Assembly: GCA_965230935.1 (NCBI GenBank)
Contig: OZ246400.1
Coordinates: 173,705-237,704, forward strand
Origin: an uncultured Gammaproteobacteria bacterium
GTDB taxonomy: Bacteria > Patescibacteriota > Patescibacteriia > Magasanikbacterales > JBBTQS01
Reading direction: 5' to 3'
Length of the DNA stretch: 64,000 nucleotides
Shown here: piece after piece, positions 13,254 to 49,052 of the stretch
Position numbering within the stretch: position 1 is the first letter of the stretch
Layout: each line of letters opens with the position of its first letter
Notes under the pieces: generated by a model
Databases searched by the model: none
The model's input: the letters and a program-made list of their open reading frames with translations, nothing else
What the model was told of the DNA's origin: nothing
Made by a program: the position numbers and the translations under genes

Positions 13254-13272
13254 GCCGACGTAATGCGTCGGC
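13254..13272. terminator. bidirectional hairpin between convergent genes 12656-13219 and 13305-14228
   Basis: gccgacg-taatg-cgtcggc perfect 7-bp stem. On the minus strand it is followed by a U-rich run. Confidence 0.6.
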
Positions 13273-13304
13273 TCGTTGTGTTGTTGGTGTGTGTCCTCAG
13301 ACGA

Positions 13305-14228
13305 TCAGGCGAACACCGAGGCGCCGCGGAACTGACGCATGACCCCACCTTTGAGGAAGGACAGATCACGCGACAAACGCAGTAGGTGCGCCAACTGCCG
13401 CTCAGTCTTGGTGCTCATCTTCTTGTGGTGTCGCTCCCAGAGCTCGGGCTGGGTGGCCGGATCAGGCACCTGGTAGCGCTGATCCTCGTGAGCCGGCAAC
13501 ACCGGAGCGATGCATTCGCCAAAGTGTTCGACCAAGGCCGCCAAAGGGAACACCTCCTCCACGCCCATGAGGTGGTAGTGAACCTCCTCGTCCTTGACCG
13601 GCGAGTAGCCGATCACCGCGGTATGCGCACGTTTGTACTCGTCCTTGGGCATGCCGGCCAGGTGCGGGGGGAACCCGCCCATGTCCAGCAGCGTCGGGTT
13701 GTGCCAGATGGCCATGGTGTTGGCAATGCGCCCCTCGAGAATCGACTCGGTGAGCTCGTTGATCGCCAGACCGGTAACCATGGCACCCTGCTCGAGCGCT
13801 GCCCACATGGCGTCGAAGTTCTCCTGCGTCAGGTACGGTTGAGCTTCTGTAGACGCGATCATGGAGAACTCACACCCATGCTGCAGCTGGATCCGCACTC
13901 CCTGATTGAGGATCGCGCAGTACAGGTCACCATAGGTGACGATGTGAACGGCCACATCAGCGACTCCGCTTTGCTTCATGGCATCGCACAGCGCCGCGTG
14001 TGTCTCGCCGCAGTCACTCTTGGCGTACCCATGTGCAGCCCAGACCAGCACGTCGACTCGCTTAAGGCGACTCAGCTGGTTGGCAAGGGTAAGCTGGTTG
14101 GCAGCACGGATCATCTCTACGACCTGTGCACACCGCTTCGGGACATCTTCTGCCTTCGTGGCAAAAGTGCGTAGGACAAGTCCTACATTGCGCACGCGCA
14201 TATTGCGCGGCTTGACCGAATTGGTCAT
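13305..14228 (-). CDS. hypothetical protein, high-GC cassette gene D
   Basis: 307-aa ORF with GGAGG SD 9 nt before ATG 14228. Body is strongly GC-rich with GC-rich codons. No domain recognised. Confidence 0.75.
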   Translation of the reverse strand: MTNSVKPRNMRVRNVGLVLRTFATKAEDVPKRCAQVVEMIRAANQLTLANQLSRLKRVDVLVWAAHGYAKSDCGETHAALCDAMKQSGVADVAVHIVTYGDLYCAILNQGVRIQLQHGCEFSMIASTEAQPYLTQENFDAMWAALEQGAMVTGLAINELTESILEGRIANTMAIWHNPTLLDMGGFPPHLAGMPKDEYKRAHTAVIGYSPVKDEEVHYHLMGVEEVFPLAALVEHFGECIAPVLPAHEDQRYQVPDPATQPELWERHHKKMSTKTERQLAHLLRLSRDLSFLKGGVMRQFRGASVFA

Positions 14229-14381
14229 TGGTTTCCTCCATAGTACTTCCCCAACGCATCAGGGAAATACGCAGTTGGCTTCTCACCGTACGACACTAGT
14301 CAGTTATCTGTCTTCTCCCTAACGCATCAGGAAAAATCAAGAACTGAGGGAACCGCGCCCCTACCGCTTGGCAAGACAAAA

Positions 14382-17450: not shown

Positions 17451-17479
17451 TTGACGAGGTTATGTAAGTTTTATACACT
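17451..17479 (+). promoter_or_regulatory. sigma70-like promoter for gene A (TTGACG-17-TACACT)
   Basis: cTTGACGaggttatgtaagttttaTACACTg, followed by a leader hairpin and SD. Confidence 0.6.
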
Positions 17480-17508: not shown

Positions 17509-18576
17509 TTGGAGGTCGCTTTGAGCACACCTGAGCCTGCGGGCAAACCTGCGGTCCGGATTGTCCAGGCCGTGGACCAACCGAACATCAGCAAAGCGAT
17601 CCACGCATTGCTGTTGTTCTTCGAGGAGCGTAACTGGGTCGACAACGACGCCATGATCCTGGAGCTCGGTCGTGCGCTGCACGAGGGTCATCAGTGTTGG
17701 GCACCGGTGTACGATCGGGACGCGGTCGGGACGCGGCTCATCTACGTACTGCCGTTCGACGGAGCGCAAGGACAGCGTCGCAGCGCCACGCGCTGCGTCT
17801 GGGTGTCCACCGCACGAGCGGATCTGATGGTCGAGCACATGATCGAACTTACCACCGGGCCATACGGTCGTGGTCGTAAGGCGCCGTCGGAGGGCATGTT
17901 CATCCAGGACACCGCAGCAACCGATCACCTCAACGAGTGTATCGGTCGCAAGATCGGTCGTCCGTGGGAGGTCGCTGACATTGCGTATACCGCGTCGCAG
18001 ACTTTGGCCGCGTGGTGGGCGGAGCAGCACCCGGTTCCGGCGACGCGCCGACCGGGACGCCGCGAGCGACTCAGTGAAGAGTTGTTGGGACACGTCAGGG
18101 AAGCACTGCGTTCGTCACAGCAGTTCGCCGTGGCCCCACCGCGTGGGTCGAGTGGCATGGGTTTTTACGTCCTGCCGATCGACCAGTGGACGCTCCAGCG
18201 CTGCATCGGGATAACGCTCAACGGCCACGCTGCCGAGGATTTGTCCCGGGATCTCGCCGGTCGGATTCGTTTGCACCTTGGCGACCGTTGGGAGCTGGGT
18301 GGCGACGAGGGTCCGGTGGAGGCCGAGTCCGATGTCATGAGCGTGAGTTCGGACGAGATCGAGTTCGAGCTCGAGTTCGACGACGATGCGGATGACGACG
18401 CGGACGACGAGAACGTCGCAGAGGCCGTGGTAGTTTCGCAGGTTGTCTCCGGTGACGAGCCGACGCAGGAGGCCACGCCGAGTGCCGGCACTGCTCCCAC
18501 TGACGAGCAGATGTCCACCCCAGCTGAGGACGGCAAAGGGCGCTCCGAGGGCAACCCTCCGGTTGGCCCGGCGTAA
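17509..18576 (+). CDS. hypothetical protein with acidic C-terminal tail, high-GC cassette gene A
   Basis: 355-aa ORF. Likely real start is TTG 17521, 5 nt after GGAGG (17511-17515). GC-rich codons. C-terminal EFELEFDDDADDDADDE low-complexity region. No domain recognised. Confidence 0.75.
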   Translation: MEVALSTPEPAGKPAVRIVQAVDQPNISKAIHALLLFFEERNWVDNDAMILELGRALHEGHQCWAPVYDRDAVGTRLIYVLPFDGAQGQRRSATRCVWVSTARADLMVEHMIELTTGPYGRGRKAPSEGMFIQDTAATDHLNECIGRKIGRPWEVADIAYTASQTLAAWWAEQHPVPATRRPGRRERLSEELLGHVREALRSSQQFAVAPPRGSSGMGFYVLPIDQWTLQRCIGITLNGHAAEDLSRDLAGRIRLHLGDRWELGGDEGPVEAESDVMSVSSDEIEFELEFDDDADDDADDENVAEAVVVSQVVSGDEPTQEATPSAGTAPTDEQMSTPAEDGKGRSEGNPPVGPA

Positions 18577-18608
18577 CTTTAGCCATCACACAACACACAC
18601 AACATGAA

Positions 18609-18637
18609 GAACGCGCAAACAAGCGCGCTCTTTGTAT
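18609..18637 (+). terminator. hairpin terminator after gene A
   Basis: gaacgcgc-aaacaa-gcgcgctc stem followed by tttgtattct. Confidence 0.65.
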
Positions 18638-18710
18638 TCTGGACAAAAGTAATTTGTTATAGTATGTATAAGATACCTGCATAAGAGATAGTGCAGGAAG
18701 AGGAGATCAG

Positions 18711-19478
18711 ATGTCACATGACGAATCGGCAGCGCCCCCGCAAGTGCCGATTGAGGAGGCCATTGTTGGGTTTTGCGCCCACATTGGATTGGTCGCCCGG
18801 AGTTCGTTTGGCGAGGAGTTGGTTGCTGCGGTGTGCCGAAAGGCCGTCTGCGCGATCGACATACAACCAGACTGGGATCAACGGGCAGTCTTTCGCGTAC
18901 CAGCAAAGCACGACCGTGTCTCGGGCGTGTTCGCAGTGATCTTGCTCGACGACGCGCTGAGCGAGTCGCTGACCAATGACTTCAATGAGCTTCTGCTGGG
19001 CTATGGCGGCTCAGGAGAAGGAGATGTTGATCACTGGAGTCAGACGACCAAGCTCACCCGCGCGGTTCGTGGGCTCAAGAGCTGGTTCAAGGACAGAGGC
19101 ATCCGTCTGGAGGTTGGGGATATCAACAGCTTTGTCACCGCCTGGGAAACTGGTGAGGTGAGAGAGTGGTCGTTTGATCAAGGTCGTGGAGCACCGGTGA
19201 TTGCGTTCGTCGTGCGTCCGTACGATGCCCCCAGAGACGAACGACGAAACAGTGAAGTTTGCGTCGAGGTGCACTGGGGTGACAGGCTCAACCACGAGTT
19301 GACTGCTGGTCTGAACCAGATGATCGACGATGCGTTGGGCCCCGATCTTCACTGGGACGTTCGGCGAACCACGGATGAGGACGCGTCTACGTCTGCCCAT
19401 TTTGCTGCACAGGAGGTGGCAGCCATCGGGGGGCAACAGCGGGAGCAACCGCGCCGTCGCAGCGCTGTGGGCGAGTAA
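18711..19478 (+). CDS. hypothetical protein, high-GC cassette gene B
   Basis: 255-aa ORF. ATG preceded by GGAAGAGGAG SD. GC-rich codons. No domain recognised. Confidence 0.75.
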   Translation: MSHDESAAPPQVPIEEAIVGFCAHIGLVARSSFGEELVAAVCRKAVCAIDIQPDWDQRAVFRVPAKHDRVSGVFAVILLDDALSESLTNDFNELLLGYGGSGEGDVDHWSQTTKLTRAVRGLKSWFKDRGIRLEVGDINSFVTAWETGEVREWSFDQGRGAPVIAFVVRPYDAPRDERRNSEVCVEVHWGDRLNHELTAGLNQMIDDALGPDLHWDVRRTTDEDASTSAHFAAQEVAAIGGQQREQPRRRSAVGE

Positions 19479-19502
19479 CTCAACACAACACACAACACAG
19501 GG

Positions 19503-19529
19503 CCTCCGCTACAACTTAGTGGAGGTTTT
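19503..19529 (+). terminator. hairpin terminator after gene B
   Basis: cctccgcta-caact-tagtggagg 9-bp stem followed by TTTT. Confidence 0.7.
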
Positions 19530-19537
19530 GTAATATC

Positions 19538-19566
19538 TTGACAGGAAAGCTGTCGCATAGTATAGT
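19538..19566 (+). promoter_or_regulatory. consensus sigma70 promoter for gene C (TTGACA-17-TATAGT)
   Basis: cTTGACAggaaagctgtcgcatagTATAGTc. Confidence 0.7.
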
Positions 19567-19590: not shown

Positions 19591-20238
19591 TTGATTAACT
19601 ACCGGGGAGGGAAGGGGGCTAACACCTTGAGTGAAGATTGGCGCGGCTTTGTCGCGGCACGTGAGGAAGATCGCGTTGCTGCGCTTGGTGCCGCAATGTC
19701 TCATCTGATGCAGCGAGTGGGGTTCATTGACCCCAAATCGCCTGGGGACAAGAAGTCTCGGAAGGCGCTTGCACAGATGGGGTCGGCATTGGCTGCCATG
19801 ATCAGTGCCGCCCGTTCCGGTGACGTGTACATCACGGTGCTGCAGGGCGAGCAGACAGGTTCCGACGTGCTGATCCAGGTGTTGCCATTCGCCCCGACTA
19901 TGATCGGCGATGGCGACGATGCCGCGTTGGATCTGAGCATGCCGCGTCGCACTCGCGAGCGGCTGGTCATGGTCTACACTCTCTCGCCGAACGGCACTGA
20001 CCGTGGCTTCGAGTTCTCTCTGGATCTCACCACCAGCTTCAACACAGGTGTGCAGCAGGTCATCGACGTGCAGCACACATCACTCCTGCAACGAGGTTTG
20101 AGGCCCAGGGAGCGATCCGAGTCCCCCCCGGCACCAAATGGCTGGTTGACCTGGGAGGACTGGCTCGAGGAGTCGGCACGACGCGCCGAGCAGTCGGGGA
20201 CTGGAGGCGAGGAGGTCGAGGAGTCCTCAGGCTCCTGA
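19591..20238 (+). CDS. hypothetical protein, high-GC cassette gene C
   Basis: ORF from TTG 19591. More likely start is TTG 19627, 8 nt after the GGGGAGGGAAGGGGG SD-like run. GC-rich codons. No domain recognised. Confidence 0.7.
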   Translation: MINYRGGKGANTLSEDWRGFVAAREEDRVAALGAAMSHLMQRVGFIDPKSPGDKKSRKALAQMGSALAAMISAARSGDVYITVLQGEQTGSDVLIQVLPFAPTMIGDGDDAALDLSMPRRTRERLVMVYTLSPNGTDRGFEFSLDLTTSFNTGVQQVIDVQHTSLLQRGLRPRERSESPPAPNGWLTWEDWLEESARRAEQSGTGGEEVEESSGS

Positions 20239-20272
20239 TCACTCACAACAACAACCACACCACAACGGCAGG

Positions 20273-20297
20273 CCCGGCGTATACGCGACGGGTTTTC
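20273..20297 (+). terminator. hairpin terminator after gene C
   Basis: cccggcgtatacgcgacggg (contains the 10-nt palindrome gcgtatacgc) followed by TTTT. Confidence 0.6.
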
Positions 20298-21821: not shown

Positions 21822-21912
21822 ATACCCTTATCATACGCGTAAGTGTTCAGCTTGAAAAGCGCGTATGCAAACACGCCATCGGTTGGGATGGGTGTTGCGT
21901 TGTGGGTGTTGG

Positions 21913-22239
21913 TTAAAAATATGCGGCCAGATGGTCGAGGAGTTCTGGGTTTGCACGCAGGTGTGCCAAGGTTTGGTCACGACGAGCCGTTGTGGTGTAC
22001 CACGTCAAAAAAGACTTTACCGCCATGGTGTACGGGCTGGTTTCGGGTCGTGAAACATGCGCGTCAAGGCACGCTTGAATCCAATCACCAAGCAAATCCA
22101 TTTGTGTTGCCGTAAGTCTACGAACAACAAATCGCGTGCTATATGGGTACAAGTCGAGAACGCGATGCCAGTGCAACTTTGGTGTACTCTTTACCAGCAC
22201 TGTGATAAGGGGTTGGTGCACGGGTTGGAGTCGTCGCAT
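21913..22239 (-). CDS. hypothetical small protein (uncertain)
   Basis: 108-aa ORF directly downstream of the Cys-rich lipoprotein, overlapping it in another frame. The C-terminal 60 aa read protein-like. The start may be an internal Met. Confidence 0.3.
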   Translation of the reverse strand: MRRLQPVHQPLITVLVKSTPKLHWHRVLDLYPYSTRFVVRRLTATQMDLLGDWIQACLDAHVSRPETSPYTMAVKSFLTWYTTTARRDQTLAHLRANPELLDHLAAYF

Positions 22240-22496
22240 GGTACATCAGCGATTTGGTCACTGATCACACTGACACATGACTGGCTCAGTGGATCCCACC
22301 AGGTGTCGATGCATGGGGTCGGGCTCACACAGATCGTTTCAGCCGGCGAGGGTTCACTTGTCGGCGCAATAGCCTGCCTGTGCGTGCATGGTTCTGATTC
22401 AATAGTAGTATGTTCATCTGACCCGACTTCACATCCCAACAATAAGATACTTAAGATGATTTGTGGTTTCATATGCTCCTTGTCCAACATCAGCAA
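22191..22496 (-). CDS. small secreted Cys-rich lipoprotein sharing the DDxNPCT motif
   Basis: Probable start at Met 22472 (MKPQIILSILLLGC lipobox; AAGGAG upstream). Mature part has 8 Cys and ends ...VPCDDSNPCTNPLSQCW. Signal-peptide codons are AT-rich; the Cys-rich part is GC-rich. Confidence 0.6.
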   Translation of the reverse strand: MLMLDKEHMKPQIILSILLLGCEVGSDEHTTIESEPCTHRQAIAPTSEPSPAETICVSPTPCIDTWWDPLSQSCVSVISDQIADVPCDDSNPCTNPLSQCW

Positions 22497-22560
22497 TTAG
22501 AGTACTATACAAGCACATTGCGAGCAGATCAAGATCTATTCTGCGTATAACCTGTTTATT

Positions 22561-35876: not shown

Positions 35877-36440
35877 ATGATTGATATTGTCCATGCCGCA
35901 GAGATTGCCAAAGACGCTGCACATGCAGTGGAGGCAACCGCAAGTGCAAACCCGATTGGAACATTTGGGTTAAATCTTAAGTTGTTTATTGCCCAGTTGG
36001 TCAACTTTGCAATTGTGTTGTTGGTGTTGTGGAAATGGGTATACAAACCATTGCTTAAGATTTTACGAGAGCGAACTGATACCATTGAAAAATCACTTGC
36101 CGATGCAAAACAAATTGAACAAGATCGTCTTGCAGCAGATGAAACAACGGCGGCACAGATTAAACAAGCTAAAGAAGAGGCGCGTGCAATCATTGCGCAA
36201 TCTGCAGAAAAAGCAGAGGCACTTGCGCTTGCAGGTAAGGAAAAAGCAACACAAGAAGTGGAGCAATTGGTGGCACAAGCGAAAGCGCAAATCGCAAGTG
36301 AGCGCACAGCAATGAAAGAAGAGTTAAAAGCTGAGACGATGACGCTGGCGGTAGCGGTAGCGCAAAAGATTTTGCAGGAGAAGATTGACACTAAGGCAGA
36401 CGCGACGCTAATTGCTAAAGCAGTTGATTCAGTGAAATAA
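35877..36440 (+). CDS. atpF: F0F1 ATP synthase subunit b
   Basis: N-terminal TM helix followed by a long charged coiled coil. Position between atpE and atpH. Confidence 0.85.
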   Translation: MIDIVHAAEIAKDAAHAVEATASANPIGTFGLNLKLFIAQLVNFAIVLLVLWKWVYKPLLKILRERTDTIEKSLADAKQIEQDRLAADETTAAQIKQAKEEARAIIAQSAEKAEALALAGKEKATQEVEQLVAQAKAQIASERTAMKEELKAETMTLAVAVAQKILQEKIDTKADATLIAKAVDSVK

Positions 36441-41125: not shown

Positions 41126-41164
41126 GACAACGTAGTGATGCAAAAATTACTTTAGAATAAGAGA

Positions 41165-41205
41165 AAAAAAGACGAATCTGTGTTATAGATTCGTCTTTAA
41201 TTTTA
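41165..41205 (+). terminator. rho-independent terminator of atp operon
   Basis: aaagacgaatc-tgtgttata-gattcgtcttt perfect 11-bp stem followed by a T-run. Confidence 0.8.
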
Positions 41206-41213
41206 GCTAAATA

Positions 41214-41242
41214 TTGACAAATATTCAATTTTAATGTATTGT
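41214..41242 (+). promoter_or_regulatory. sigma70-like promoter for Cys-rich lipoprotein gene (TTGACA-17-TATTGT)
   Basis: aTTGACAaatattcaattttaatgTATTGTg. Followed by a GC-rich structured leader (ggccacagtggcc palindrome; gccatg...catggc stem). Confidence 0.55.
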
Positions 41243-41337
41243 GCTACCTTATAGGAGGGCCACAGTGGCCAGCCATGCGGCGATGATTCCATGGCATGAA
41301 GCTGTGGGTTCTTTGACAATTAGAGGGGGTTCGAAAG

Positions 41338-43989
41338 ATGAATCGAATAGCTATTACCCTTGCCTTTGCCGCCCTGATCGCAGGGTGTGCAGACGCATCG
41401 GTAGATCCAGGAACGGTCGAGTGTTTCGGCGAGGCCTGTGCCAAGCCGGACGCCGATACGACCGGTGGTGGGGAGGTAGTCCCTCCGGATACCACACCGG
41501 ATGTCGGCGACACCGGTGATGACAGTGATGATCCGGATGTGCTCGAGACCGACGACGGTGCTGAGGTGGACGACATCAATGACGCCGATACGGCCGTCGA
41601 GGATGTGGACATCGACGTTCCGGACGAGGGTGATGATGGCGACACGCCGGATGTGCCCGAGACCAACGACGGTGCTGAGGTGGACGACACCGAGGACACC
41701 GACGAGACGACGGACACGGACGAGACCGATACGCCTGTTGATCCCTGCGATGGGGTCGACTGCACGGACGACAACCCGTGCACCATCGACGAGACGTGCG
41801 TGGATGGCGAGTGTGTCAGCTCGCCGGTCGTCTGCAACGATGACAATCCGTGTACGGACGATGCGTGCGTCGTGATTGAAGGTGGGTGCGTGTATACCCC
41901 GAACGCAGTGCTGTGTGAGGATGGCGACCCGTGTACGCTGGAGGACGCCTGTGTGGACGGTTCCTGTGCGCCTGGCGCACCGAAGATCTGCCAGGATGCC
42001 AACTTCTGCACCGTGGATGCGTGCGACCCGGTTTCCGGGGAGTGTGCCTTCGTGGTCGTGCCCGAGCCCTGCGATGATGGGAACGAGTGTACGCAGGAGG
42101 AGGTGTGTCAGCAGGACGCCACGTGTGGCAACGGGGCGGAAGTGGAGTGCGCAGACGAAGATCCGTGCACGAACGACAGCTGCAATCCGGACTCGGGTTG
42201 TGTGTTTGCTCAGAAGGAGTGCGACGACGAAGATCCGTGCACCGTTGACTTGTGCGAGACCGAGTCTGGCGAGTGTACCTTCGTGATCGTGCCGGAGTGC
42301 AAATGCGCTCCTGAGCAGTGTACGGACGACAACCCGTGCACGTCGGACGTGTGCAACCCGCTCGACGGGTCCTGCTCCTTCCCGTTCAACACGGAGCCGT
42401 GTGACGATGGCGACCCGTGTACGTTGGAGGACGCCTGTGCGGACGGTTCCTGTGCGCCTGGCGCGCCCAAGTCGTGTATCAGTGAGAACATCTGCCTGAG
42501 CGCGAGCTGCAATCCGGAGACGGGGAGCTGTGAGCTGAGTGAGAACACCGCGCCGTGTGACGATGGCGATGCGTGCACCCAGGAAGATGTGTGTAACGAA
42601 GGTTCGTGCGCTGGCGTGCTGATGGTGTGTACGGACGACAACCCGTGCACCGAAGGCGACACGTGCAATGGCGGCACTTGCGCCGCCGGGGAAGCCAAGG
42701 TCTGCGAAGACGGTAACCCCTGCACGGTTGGTGCGTGCGACCCGGATTCCGGGGAGTGCGCGTTTTCCCCGGACAACGGGGGAAGCTGCACGGACGACAA
42801 CCCGTGCACCAACGACGTCTGCCAGGACGGGGAGTGTGTGAGCGAGGCCAACAGCGCCTGCTGCACTGAAGACGCGCAGTGCGCTGACGAGCTGGCCTGT
42901 ACGCAGGACCAGTGCGTGGAGCAGTTGTGTAAGAACTTCGTCATTCCGGGCACCGGGCATTGCCTTATCGAGGAGGTGTGTATTCCGGAAGGGGTGGTCA
43001 ATTCGGCCAACGACTGTGAGGCTTGCACCTCGATGGTCAACCCCAACGGGTGGAGCCCGCTTGTGGATGGGAGCGATTGCGAAGATGGACAGGCGTGCAC
43101 CGAAGGCGACACGTGCAATGGCGGCACTTGCGCCGCCGGGGAAGCCAAGGTCTGCGAAGACGGTAACCCCTGCACGGTTGGTGCGTGCGACCCGGATTCC
43201 GGGGAGTGCGCGTTTTCCCCGGACAACGGGGGAAGCTGCACGGACGACAACCCGTGCACCAACGACGTCTGCCAGGACGGGGAGTGTGTGAGTACCACAG
43301 TCGCGTGCGACGACGGTCTCCCATGCACTCTGGATTCGTGTGACGAGGCGGGCGAGTGTCAGTACGAGCCCAAGACGTGTGACGACTCCAATCCGTGCAC
43401 CATCGATTCGTGCGAGCAGAGCACCGGCGATTGCGTAGGTGAGCTTGCTACGGTGAAGTTCCAGGACATCACCGCGGCCAAGTGCCTCACGCTTCCGCCG
43501 TTCATGCCATGGTTCGCGTTTGATGACTTCGATGACTCGGAGTCGCCCAATTCGAACATCTGGCACTGCGGTCACGACTGCCTGAACATCGACGCGGCCT
43601 GCCAGTCGCAAGTCGGTACGATCCGTCCCGGGTTTACGCACAACGGGGACCAGCACACCTTTACCATCGACCCGCAAGCAGCGTTTCCGGAACTTGACGG
43701 CATGACCATCTCGGCCGCCTTCACGTTCCGCAGGCAAGGGGTAACGCCCAACGACCTGACGCCGCCTGAGGTTGTGGTGAAGCAGACCATCGACGGAATC
43801 GAAACGGTGCTTGCCTCGCAGTTCCTGGGCAAATCACCGAACAACAATTTCGATTTCCTGGTCGAGTTCCTGGTTGGTGATGGTTTGGTCACGGTGTACT
43901 ACACGCCCAACGACTTCATCCCCGACTCGGAACGCACGCTGCACATCATGCTCGACTCGAACATCGAGCTGCAGCCTGTGTGTCCCTGA
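41338..43989 (+). CDS. large Cys-rich tandem-repeat lipoprotein (CxDDNPCTxDxC repeats, slime-mold/Dicty-CTDC-like)
   Basis: Lipoprotein signal (MNRIAITLAFAALIAGC), acidic D/E/T-rich linker, then roughly 20-25 repeats of about 22-25 aa with 4 Cys each (e.g. CTDDNPCTIDETCVDGECV). C-terminal roughly 170-aa Cys-poor domain. GC-rich codons. High-GC cassette gene E. Confidence 0.85.
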   Translation: MNRIAITLAFAALIAGCADASVDPGTVECFGEACAKPDADTTGGGEVVPPDTTPDVGDTGDDSDDPDVLETDDGAEVDDINDADTAVEDVDIDVPDEGDDGDTPDVPETNDGAEVDDTEDTDETTDTDETDTPVDPCDGVDCTDDNPCTIDETCVDGECVSSPVVCNDDNPCTDDACVVIEGGCVYTPNAVLCEDGDPCTLEDACVDGSCAPGAPKICQDANFCTVDACDPVSGECAFVVVPEPCDDGNECTQEEVCQQDATCGNGAEVECADEDPCTNDSCNPDSGCVFAQKECDDEDPCTVDLCETESGECTFVIVPECKCAPEQCTDDNPCTSDVCNPLDGSCSFPFNTEPCDDGDPCTLEDACADGSCAPGAPKSCISENICLSASCNPETGSCELSENTAPCDDGDACTQEDVCNEGSCAGVLMVCTDDNPCTEGDTCNGGTCAAGEAKVCEDGNPCTVGACDPDSGECAFSPDNGGSCTDDNPCTNDVCQDGECVSEANSACCTEDAQCADELACTQDQCVEQLCKNFVIPGTGHCLIEEVCIPEGVVNSANDCEACTSMVNPNGWSPLVDGSDCEDGQACTEGDTCNGGTCAAGEAKVCEDGNPCTVGACDPDSGECAFSPDNGGSCTDDNPCTNDVCQDGECVSTTVACDDGLPCTLDSCDEAGECQYEPKTCDDSNPCTIDSCEQSTGDCVGELATVKFQDITAAKCLTLPPFMPWFAFDDFDDSESPNSNIWHCGHDCLNIDAACQSQVGTIRPGFTHNGDQHTFTIDPQAAFPELDGMTISAAFTFRRQGVTPNDLTPPEVVVKQTIDGIETVLASQFLGKSPNNNFDFLVEFLVGDGLVTVYYTPNDFIPDSERTLHIMLDSNIELQPVCP
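42644..42842 (+). repeat. 199-bp perfect direct repeat, copy 1 (inside Cys-rich lipoprotein gene)
   Basis: Identical base-for-base to 43094-43292. Encodes CTEGDTCNGGTCAAGEAKVCEDGNPCTVGACDPDSGECAFSPDNGGSCTDDNPCTNDVCQDGECVS. Confidence 0.95.
43094..43292 (+). repeat. 199-bp perfect direct repeat, copy 2
   Basis: Identical to 42644-42842. The 450-nt offset is exactly 150 codons, so recombination between copies would be in-frame. Confidence 0.95.
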
Positions 43990-44020
43990 CCCTCAAGACA
44001 ACAACAAACCTACAACAGTA

Positions 44021-44055
44021 AGAGCTCTCCTTTCCAGGAGGGCTCTTTCTATTTA
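44021..44055 (+). terminator. hairpin terminator after Cys-rich lipoprotein gene
   Basis: agagctctcc-tttcca-ggagggctct 10-bp stem followed by ttctatttatt. Confidence 0.7.
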
Positions 44056-44084
44056 TTGCGTTTTAACGCGTTTTCCTTCACAAT

Positions 44085-47795: not shown

Positions 47796-49031
47796 ATGAT
47801 ATTCAAACAATCAAAACTCTTTACCAAGACAAGTAAAGAAAATCCAAAAGACGAAGTAAGTATTAATGCACAGCTCCTTTCTCGAGCGGGATACATTGAT
47901 AAGGTCATGGCCGGAGTGTACTCATATCTCCCGCTTGGTTTGCGCGTACTTACTAAGATCGCAAAAATTGTGCGATCTGAAATGGATGGCATTGGCGCGC
48001 AAGAGCTGTTGTTGCCAGCGCTTCATCCAAAAGAATATTATCTCGCAACCAAGCGCTGGGAAGCGATTGATGTATTGTTTAAACTCGAAGGCGCAGGGAG
48101 TAAAGAACTTGCGCTTGGATCAACGCACGAAGAGATTGTCACACCACTGTTGCAAAAATTCGTACATTCGTATAAGGATCTACCAACAGCGGTATATCAA
48201 ATTCAAACAAAGTTCCGAAATGAACCACGGGCAAAATCAGGGCTACTTCGTGGTCGCGAATTTTTGATGAAAGATTTGTACAGTTTTCATAGAGATCAAG
48301 CTGATTTTGAACAGTATTATACAACAGTAACTGAAGCGTATCACCGTGTATTTGCCCAGTGTGGACTTGATGCAAAGTACACAGCTGCAGACGGAGGGGT
48401 GTTTAGTAAGTTCTCTCATGAATTTCAAGTGTTTACTCCCCATGGTGAGGATATGGTGTTTAGCTGTGGCGCGTGTGATGTGCATACCAACAAAGAATTA
48501 GTGAGTGACAATACATGTGAGCAGTGTGGGGGAGAGCGTGAGGAAAATAAAGCAATTGAGGTGGGAAATATTTTCCCATTGAAGACAAAGTTTTCTACTG
48601 CATTTGATTTTACCTATCCTGATGAGAAAAATACCCAACAAGAGATTCTTATGGGGTGCTATGGCATCGGAGTTAGTCGACTGATGGGAGCTATTGTTGA
48701 GGTGCATCATGACGACGCTGGTATTATTTGGCCGAAGGAAGTGGCGCCATATGATGTGCATGTGATTGCCCTGGGTCAGGACGAGGCGGTCATGAAAAAA
48801 GCGCAAGAGATAGCGATTACCCTTTCAGAACATGGAAAAGATGTGCTACTTGATGATCGTGATGTGCGTGCAGGAGTGAAGTTTGCTGATAGTGATTTGA
48901 TTGGCCTACCAGTCCGTGTTGTGGTAAGTTCGGGATTGCTTGAGAACAATCAAGTTGAAGTCAAAGAGCGAATCGCTGTTGAGGCTACCACCTTGGATGA
49001 AGCACAACTGTATAGCCAGTGGGGCTTTTAA
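47796..49031 (+). CDS. proS: prolyl-tRNA synthetase (short form, no insertion editing domain)
   Basis: Class-II motifs (FRNE, GRE...DLYSF, GCYGIGVSRL) and a C-terminal anticodon-binding domain. ATG 47796 follows the upstream stop. Confidence 0.92.
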   Translation: MIFKQSKLFTKTSKENPKDEVSINAQLLSRAGYIDKVMAGVYSYLPLGLRVLTKIAKIVRSEMDGIGAQELLLPALHPKEYYLATKRWEAIDVLFKLEGAGSKELALGSTHEEIVTPLLQKFVHSYKDLPTAVYQIQTKFRNEPRAKSGLLRGREFLMKDLYSFHRDQADFEQYYTTVTEAYHRVFAQCGLDAKYTAADGGVFSKFSHEFQVFTPHGEDMVFSCGACDVHTNKELVSDNTCEQCGGEREENKAIEVGNIFPLKTKFSTAFDFTYPDEKNTQQEILMGCYGIGVSRLMGAIVEVHHDDAGIIWPKEVAPYDVHVIALGQDEAVMKKAQEIAITLSEHGKDVLLDDRDVRAGVKFADSDLIGLPVRVVVSSGLLENNQVEVKERIAVEATTLDEAQLYSQWGF

Positions 49032-49052
49032 AACACAACAAATACAAAAACA

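Follow-up and report, generated by a model that had tools for sequence, protein, structure and literature searches.

In a 64-kb stretch of DNA from an uncultured member of the Patescibacteria (CPR), each of five GC-rich genes is followed by a short C/A box, which is located on the sense strand of the 3'UTR between the stop codon and the hairpin of the terminator. The initial annotation had proposed this arrangement for every GC-rich gene; it holds for all five, and the boxes lie within 1-3 nt of the positions first assigned to them. The C/A-box pattern is real and is specific to this lineage. With regard to function, we tentatively favour, as possible rather than probable, that the box would be a single-stranded platform in the 3'UTR, read by a G/U-rich RNA or by a single-strand RNA-binding protein.

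GC-rich units and their C/A boxes

The window, by which we mean the whole 64-kb stretch that was analysed (about 43% GC), carries housekeeping genes such as dnaG, rpoD, the atp operon, pcrA, mreBCD, the gene for PBP2 and those for several tRNA synthetases. It matches an uncultured Patescibacteria (CPR) genome represented by a 931-kb contig, of which 82 kb (the window plus 18 kb of flanks) were covered. Independent assemblies from two samples of PRJEB17505 are 100% identical to the window over positions 3305-24201 and over stretches overlapping both of its ends; the gene-box-terminator arrangement is the same in the assemblies of both samples, and box length shows no strain variation. Since PcrA identity to the nearest other genomes is just 46-51%, the lineage is isolated.

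The five GC-rich genes, A to E, are mutually unrelated. Their GC content is 0.59-0.64 and their GC3 0.65-0.76, compared to 0.37-0.47 and about 0.3-0.45, respectively, in the host, and the order GC3>GC1>GC2 found in all of them indicates that they are genuine coding sequences. Each gene belongs to a unit of its own, consisting of a near-consensus sigma70 promoter, a hairpin leader, a strong Shine-Dalgarno (SD) sequence, the ORF, the C/A box and an intrinsic terminator. Gene A (17521..18576, plus strand, GC 0.64) probably starts at a TTG after GGAGG in a frame open from 17509, is preceded by the promoter TTGACG-17-TACACT (17451-17479, plus strand) and gave no match in Pfam, PHROG, PADLOC or PDB. 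Gene B (18711..19478, plus strand, GC 0.59) is an ORFan, with itself as the sole match among 5.8 billion proteins, and gene C (19591..20238, plus strand, GC 0.62; promoter TTGACA-17-TATAGT at 19538-19566, plus strand) is essentially an ORFan; no family was matched for A, B or C. Gene D (13305..14228, minus strand, GC 0.61; promoter TTGACA-16-TATACT at 14409-14382, minus strand) belongs to a CPR-wide family which has no family name and no match in Pfam; a GT-A glycosyltransferase-like fold is seen in its AlphaFold model (pLDDT 85.5). Gene E (41338..43989, plus strand, GC 0.62) codes for a lipoprotein with Cys-rich repeats of the Dicty_CTDC type, and its promoter was read from the sequence as TTGACA-17-TATTGT (41214-41242, plus strand). 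A phage or defence origin of these genes was considered and rejected: PHROG and PADLOC were blank for A-E, tblastn against phage genomes was blank for A and D, and no relative of A was found on a viral contig.

SD sequences are scarce in the host. Anti-SD pairing reaches -6 kcal/mol or better in only 13% of 54 genes, the median value being about 0 (the start codons of the gene list are approximate), with mreB and pcrA as examples of A-rich, SD-less leaders. In contrast, all six GC-rich or foreign-type units, including unit F described below, have strong SDs of -7.5 to -12.1 kcal/mol.

Two further features of these units were observed. The leader of D (about 150 nt) contains a 20-nt direct repeat at 14248-14267 and 14316-14335 on the minus strand, 68 nt apart, whose copies read TTTCCCTGATGCGTTGGGGA and TTTTCCTGATGCGTTAGGGA on the mRNA strand and gave no match in Rfam; it could serve as an operator or as an element of the RNA, and the leader of the D homologue in L004 also has a tandem motif, of other sequence. 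Gene E holds an exact direct duplication of 199 bp (42644-42842 and 43094-43292, 100% identity, 450 nt apart), which points to recent intragenic recombination, together with many diverged repeat units of 39-84 nt.

Boxes A-E start 2-11 nt past the stop codon and end 2-6 nt ahead of a hairpin followed by a T-tract. They measure 18-23 nt, contain 40-55% C and no G, and are tiled from CA and CAA units, each C being isolated by one or two A's. Box A (CACACAACACACACAACA; 18587..18604, plus strand) lies 10 nt past the TAA of gene A, and its terminator (18607..18632, plus strand) reads AAGAACGCGC-AAACAA-GCGCGCTCTT, then TTGTATT. Box B (CAACACAACACACAACACA; 19481..19499, plus strand) is found 2 nt past the TAA of gene B, ahead of CCTCCGCTA-CAACT-TAGTGGAGG and TTTTGTA (19503..19525, plus strand). 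Box C (CACAACAACAACCACACCACAAC; 20244..20266, plus strand) follows the TGA of gene C by 5 nt and precedes a hairpin around CCCGGCG...CGCGACGGG, then TTTTCC (20270..20292, plus strand). On the minus strand, box D (ACACACACCAACAACACAAC; 13275..13294) lies 10 nt past the TGA of gene D, and the terminator next to it (GCCGACG-CATTA-CGTCGGC; 13254..13272, minus strand) is shared with a convergent prephenate dehydratase gene. Box E (ACAACAACAAACCTACAACA, with one T; 43998..44017, plus strand), 8 nt past the TGA of gene E, is followed by AGAGCTCTCC-TTTCCA-GGAGGGCTCT and then TTCTATTTATT (44021..44046, plus strand). Host terminators, on the other hand, have plain A/T-rich spacers. An ATG right behind box A opens an ORF of 26 codons (18603-18683) that runs through the terminator of A and the promoter of B; such an ATG is absent at every other box, and the ORF is probably meaningless.

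A probable sixth box surfaced at 21881-21915 during the scan for G/U-rich complements described below. This degenerate box F (CCAACACCCACAACGCAACACCCATCCCAACC; 21881..21912, minus strand, 30/32 A/C, hence 32 nt long) stands directly behind a minus-strand TAA, and a terminator-like hairpin with TTTTC follows at about 21853-21876 on the same strand. Because it is C-richer than boxes A-E and partly paired in the minimum-free-energy fold, we count it as probable and not as certain. The corresponding unit F (21913..22472, minus strand, GC 0.505, SD AAGGAG) has the promoter TTGATC-17-TATAGT (22532-22504, minus strand) and two overlapping minus-strand ORFs in different frames, a lipoprotein ORF of 93 aa (22191-22472) with one Cys repeat of the E type (E = 7e-5 against gene E) and a second one of 108 aa (21913-22239). 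Unit F is probably a decayed, truncated or frameshifted paralogue of the E type, and the public gene call, which puts a plus-strand ORF on this region (21840-22540), is on the wrong strand. With box F included, the boxes are on the sense strand in 6/6 cases, whatever the replication strand, and all are upstream of the terminator.

Statistics and ancestry of the tracts

When the A/C-only (or G/T-only) runs of the window are ranked by length in gene orientation, boxes A-D take the first four places. The A/C share of the 25 nt past the stop was 72-92% in the five GC-rich genes, compared to a median of about 0.5 in about 57 host genes. Similarly, the most A/C-rich 20 nt past the stop held 19-20 A/C in 5/5 GC-rich genes, while at least 19 were reached in 3/153 other genes, which were non-GC-rich controls pooled from the window and from six loci of relatives. 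Two of these three exceptions lie in the window and are A-rich runs, one after 474-944 and the other before mreB. Apart from them, neither the approximately 57 ordinary genes of the window nor the 18 kb of flanks, which hold no GC-rich protein gene, have a box, in agreement with the proposed restriction to GC-rich genes. The CA-rich run that had been reported ahead of mreB, and taken as a hint that such elements are used natively, does exist (49030-49052), but it belongs to an A-rich, T-containing, SD-less leader and is not a box. A scan for paired ACAAC, a type of motif that the initial annotation had put forward for a genome-wide check, gave 11 matches at 8 sites versus 2.9 +/- 1.9 expected; five of the sites were the boxes.

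The tracts are also ordered beyond their A/C-only content, as only 5 CC/AAA violations were counted where 33 were expected, and 20,000 simulations never gave a value as low. Across other loci totalling about 984 kb, balanced A/C runs of at least 15 nt were found almost solely within coding sequence. Moreover, the window is G>C skewed on the strand bearing four of the boxes, so that local composition disfavours a C-rich, G-free tract there.

In order to trace the origin of the boxes, relatives of genes D and E were compared. D homologues of 33 CPR genomes (loci L005-L037) have no box, and A/C after their stops averages about 54%. They are nearly always monocistronic with a terminator of their own and have a GC content above that of their flanks in 27/33 cases (median about +0.12), with GC3 reaching 0.89 in a genome of 46% GC. 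This looks like a compositional offset specific to the family, which a simple recent transfer fails to explain. E-like repeat proteins occur mostly in metagenome genomes of 60-72% GC, where the GC of the gene equals that of its flanks; judging from these sequences, the CPR E genes may descend from a GC-rich bacterial source. No box was found at the E-like genes of 54 GC-rich metagenome contigs. Proteins with E-like Cys repeats (L045-L124) are common, measure 800-3100 aa and share 35-44% identity over the repeats. The boxless D homologues and E-like genes rule out that the box was inherited together with the gene and indicate that the lineage itself put it in place and keeps it.

The slot between atpC and pcrA (41126-44084 in the window) is occupied by an E-type gene in six family-level relatives, complete in L041-L044 and represented by its 3' end in the contigs L125 and L126. 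The orthologues in L041-L044 each come with a promoter of their own and a GC content of 0.58-0.59 versus 0.45-0.51 for their genomes, and their leaders start with UUAUAGGAGGG or with a conserved 5' hairpin bearing GGAGGG; in L042 and L043 the leader hairpin is followed by U-runs, in an attenuator-like manner. In L042, L043 and L126 the 3'UTR of E consists of a conserved small hairpin, an A/C-rich spacer of 16-25 nt and a terminator. The spacers read CAATAACCAAACCGAAACAC in L042, AAAACTCAACCAAACAAAAC in L043 and AAATCCAACCAAAAATCAACACAAC, which includes CAACACAAC, in L126; the hairpins are kept and the spacer sequence drifts, yet it remains A/C-rich. After E in the nearest relatives (L041, L044 and L125) there is weak A/C enrichment, short CAAC-type remnants or none. 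We take this as evidence that composition is under selection at this one locus, with the reservation that the pattern is patchy, the sample of close relatives small and the three relatives with the spacer in effect a single lineage.

Candidate roles of the box

Among the roles suggested by the initial annotation, the most plausible is that of a post-transcriptional element, given the strand-specific site in the 3'UTR, the restriction to GC-rich genes and the predicted single strand. Ribosome release or re-initiation is without support, since no downstream ORF is served. A role of ACA as a MazF-type cleavage triplet has no specific support either: 5-7 ACA were counted per box region and 9-36 per GC-rich coding region, and these coding regions are not ACA-depleted, with observed/expected ratios of 0.58-1.09 versus 0.67-1.07 in the host.

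In the mechanism that we tentatively favour, a CA/CAA tract of 18-32 nt, nearly free of G and U, would stay unpaired immediately ahead of the terminator hairpin, and the lineage would put it on one class of genes, namely those that are GC-rich, SD-led, monocistronic and of xenologous type. A trans-acting factor, either a base-pairing G/U-rich RNA or a single-strand RNA-binding protein, could then read the box as a common handle, and its binding beside the protective 3' hairpin might set mRNA stability or 3'-end processing. We infer the existence and identity of this reader, and the effect of its binding. The boxes themselves have a fixed position and strand, share composition, tiling and a predicted unpaired state, and are restricted to one class of genes independently of gene family, and their composition persists at the E locus in one related clade. 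A platform is favoured because of the sense orientation, the site within the transcript, the class specificity and the independence of ancestry, and because the order of the tract exceeds a mere lack of structure and its C-rich, G-free composition opposes the strand skew. The A/C-rich spacers kept by the E orthologues of L042, L043 and L126 and the GcvB target core carried by four of the five boxes (PMC5900567) count in its favour as well. Against the platform stand the weak or missing A/C enrichment after E in the nearest relatives and the outcome of the search for a trans factor in 82 kb.

In that search, no gene for Hfq, a KH protein or Rho was annotated in the window, nor was hfq in the flanks, and a scan of the window at the Rfam gathering thresholds yielded one tRNA only and no GcvB (RF00022). 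Strong G/U-rich complements in the 82 kb were limited to the boxes' own antisense and to G/T-rich codons of transmembrane segments, with no sRNA candidate. The one notable match was a 15-nt perfect complementarity between box D and the atpF coding region (36013-36032, transmembrane codons for AIVLLVLW). With a p value of about 0.01 per box and six tests, this match is marginal and probably due to chance; if the boxes act as sRNA-like seeds, atpF would be the first candidate target. At a distance of about 1-1.7 kb to the left of window position 1 (7367-8100 of L040), there is an ORF-free stretch of about 730 nt with about 55% GC, which carries terminator-like hairpins and, on the minus strand, two sigma70-like promoters and is blank in Rfam at E <= 0.01; one or two novel structured RNAs are probably encoded there.

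A rather unlikely alternative is that the box is a passive, inert spacer, since a C/A tract pairs least with G-runs, with U-tracts and with itself. Such a spacer would keep a distance of 23-34 nt between the terminator and both the terminating ribosome and the structured coding sequence, and it may resist endonucleases that prefer U or G. In line with this, the distance from stop to stem is 23-34 nt in all five units, whereas host terminators can begin 6-13 nt past the stop; GC-rich, structure-prone mRNAs occur in these genes only; and in E. coli a 30-nt spacer between stop and terminator alters protein output up to five-fold (bioRxiv 10.64898/2026.07.06.736697). Equilibrium folding likewise predicts boxes A-E to be unpaired, with probabilities of 0.71-0.87. 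However, when each unit was folded together with 150 nt of upstream coding sequence and the box was kept, removed or exchanged for random host-like or CDS-like stretches (100 per unit), the native terminator hairpin had a probability of 0.94-0.99 (0.57 in unit C), and deletion or replacement left it at 0.92-0.99 (0.46-0.49 in unit C, a difference that is not significant). This argues against a purely structural insulator, as far as an equilibrium model reaches, a kinetic, co-transcriptional spacer role being beyond it. According to this model, the box would not be needed for folding of the terminator at equilibrium, and its salient trait would be an accessible single strand. Furthermore, the D homologues of the 33 CPR genomes, equally GC-rich relative to their hosts, do without the tract, and the near-perfect CA/CAA tiling is an order beyond what inertness would call for.

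The initial annotation also considered a recombination or integration signature of a cassette family. In this case the tract would be a junction at the DNA level, that is, a recombination site or a microhomology scar of captured genes. Genes A, B and C do form a tandem array in which B and C have C/A boxes on both flanks, boxes A and B have the 12-mer ACACAACACACA in common, and the boxes are confined to compositionally foreign genes. On the other side, the 3' regions of the boxed genes contain one chance RYYYAAC (in B) and no GTTRRRY as attC cores, every cassette has its own promoter, leader and terminator, and no integrase, transposase or reverse transcriptase is annotated in the window or its flanks. 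The 5' edges of A, D and E are without a matching tract. In addition, E and an A/C-rich spacer occupy the same slot in relatives as distant as 46-51% PcrA identity, which means that this is not a recent insertion scar, and an ancient one would need selection to stay free of G and T. We therefore consider this origin unlikely. A comparison with an empty site by means of the flanking oxidoreductase gave no close relative in JGI metagenomes. Post-transcriptional tailing with retro-transfer, which would leave A/C-only tails, was rejected since the box is upstream of the hairpin and not at the RNA 3' end, and since E is syntenic.

A lack of function, with the boxes being CA/CAA microsatellites in decay or low-complexity runs that lie in 3'UTRs by chance, is very unlikely. 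Slippage would be expected to produce CA/CAA units, the boxes vary in sequence and length, and the nearest relatives are without a clear box after E; nevertheless, the same site and orientation recur in 5/5 (6/6) units versus 2 of about 57 host genes, both with A-rich runs. The additional 18 kb of genome without a comparable tract, the near confinement of balanced A/C runs to coding sequence in the other loci and the opposing G>C skew of the window point in the same direction. Least probable of all is a site where a C-rich, G-free, unstructured patch loads Rho on these otherwise G-rich, structured mRNAs to stop read-through of the intrinsic terminator: although the boxes are C-rich and without G next to G>C skewed coding regions, and CC runs occur in box F and in the spacers of the relatives, boxes A-E are shorter than rut sites and nearly without the YC dinucleotides bound by the primary site of Rho, a strong intrinsic terminator stands directly next to them, and rho is not in the window.

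Going one step further than a platform, the box might be an RNA-level 'xenolog tag' on all domesticated genes of the foreign type (GC-rich and SD-led), a conjecture that we regard as doubtful. If it were true, one G/U-rich riboregulator or RNA-binding protein would control the whole class, as a post-transcriptional counterpart of xenogeneic silencing that is convergent in sequence with GcvB. A regulon tag would provide a handle to find the regulator and to delimit the set of acquired genes under joint control in the symbiont, and it would help to explain the expression of GC-rich, SD-led genes in a genome with little SD use. Post-transcriptional control is almost unexplored in CPR/Patescibacteria, which are not growable alone, and here a compact, easily scanned motif sets compositionally foreign genes apart from the rest of the genome. 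The marked class comprises a Cys-rich lipoprotein and a glycosyltransferase-like protein, which are surface- or envelope-related, and three orphan proteins. Even if the box were only a spacer, it would represent a natural design rule for terminator insulation behind GC-rich genes.

Comparison with known systems

Like the boxes, the attC sites of integrons are a recurrent element behind every ORF of unrelated, foreign-looking tandem genes. The boxes differ from them in having no core sites, no imperfect palindrome of the attC type and no integrase, and in that the cassettes have promoters of their own. With regard to Rho, rut sites span roughly 60-80 nt; the boxes measure 18-23 nt (32 nt in F), and the first 32 nt past the stop contain 2-4 YC dinucleotides, mostly outside the box.

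The initial annotation had related (AAC)n to the A-R-N class of RNA-binding motifs. For the distal face of Hfq, the (AAC)3 of boxes C and E does fit both ARN and AAYAAYAA, in a single-stranded tract beside a terminator hairpin. Boxes A, B and D, on the other hand, are mostly (CA)n and do not fit ARN, so that this reading applies to C and E only (AAYAAYAA in 2/5), and none of the boxes has at least four ARN triplets. Hfq is not known to be general in CPR.

Spacers between stop codon and terminator are a further parallel, as both termination and expression are known to vary with their sequence (bioRxiv 10.64898/2026.07.06.736697). That work implicates one adenosine beside the hairpin, whereas the boxes are a repeat free of G and U.

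The nearest known sequence analogue is the set of target elements of GcvB, which are single-stranded, C/A-only and built on an experimentally defined core CACAACA(T)/AACACAAC read by a G/U-rich seed (PMC5900567). C/A-rich elements of this kind mark a whole regulon and can by themselves be translational enhancers (PMC5900567; PMC9299463, citing Sharma et al. 2007). The boxes are likewise short, single-stranded and C/A-only, and the core CACAACA/ACACAAC(AT) is present in four of the five (A, B, C and D). With respect to the R1-seed motif CACAACAT / AACACAAC, AACACAAC is found exactly in B and D, and E holds ACAACA only. However, GcvB sites lie in the 5'UTR or ribosome-binding site, in contrast to boxes 2-11 nt past stop codons and beside a terminator. 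GcvB is gammaproteobacterial (Enterobacterales/Pasteurellaceae) and Hfq-dependent, whereas the host here belongs to the CPR, and its targets serve amino-acid transport and biosynthesis, whereas the genes marked by the boxes are compositionally foreign. The 3'UTR location, the phylogeny and the absence of GcvB and Hfq from view oppose membership in this system, and the likeness is functional at most.

In enterobacterial 3'UTR-derived sRNAs, the functional module is an unpaired tract immediately 5' of a Rho-independent terminator. For the boxes, the sole notable complementarity is the marginal 15-nt match of box D to atpF; the architecture, however, is common to both, with an unpaired tract of 15-25 nt and then a terminator at the end of the mRNA.
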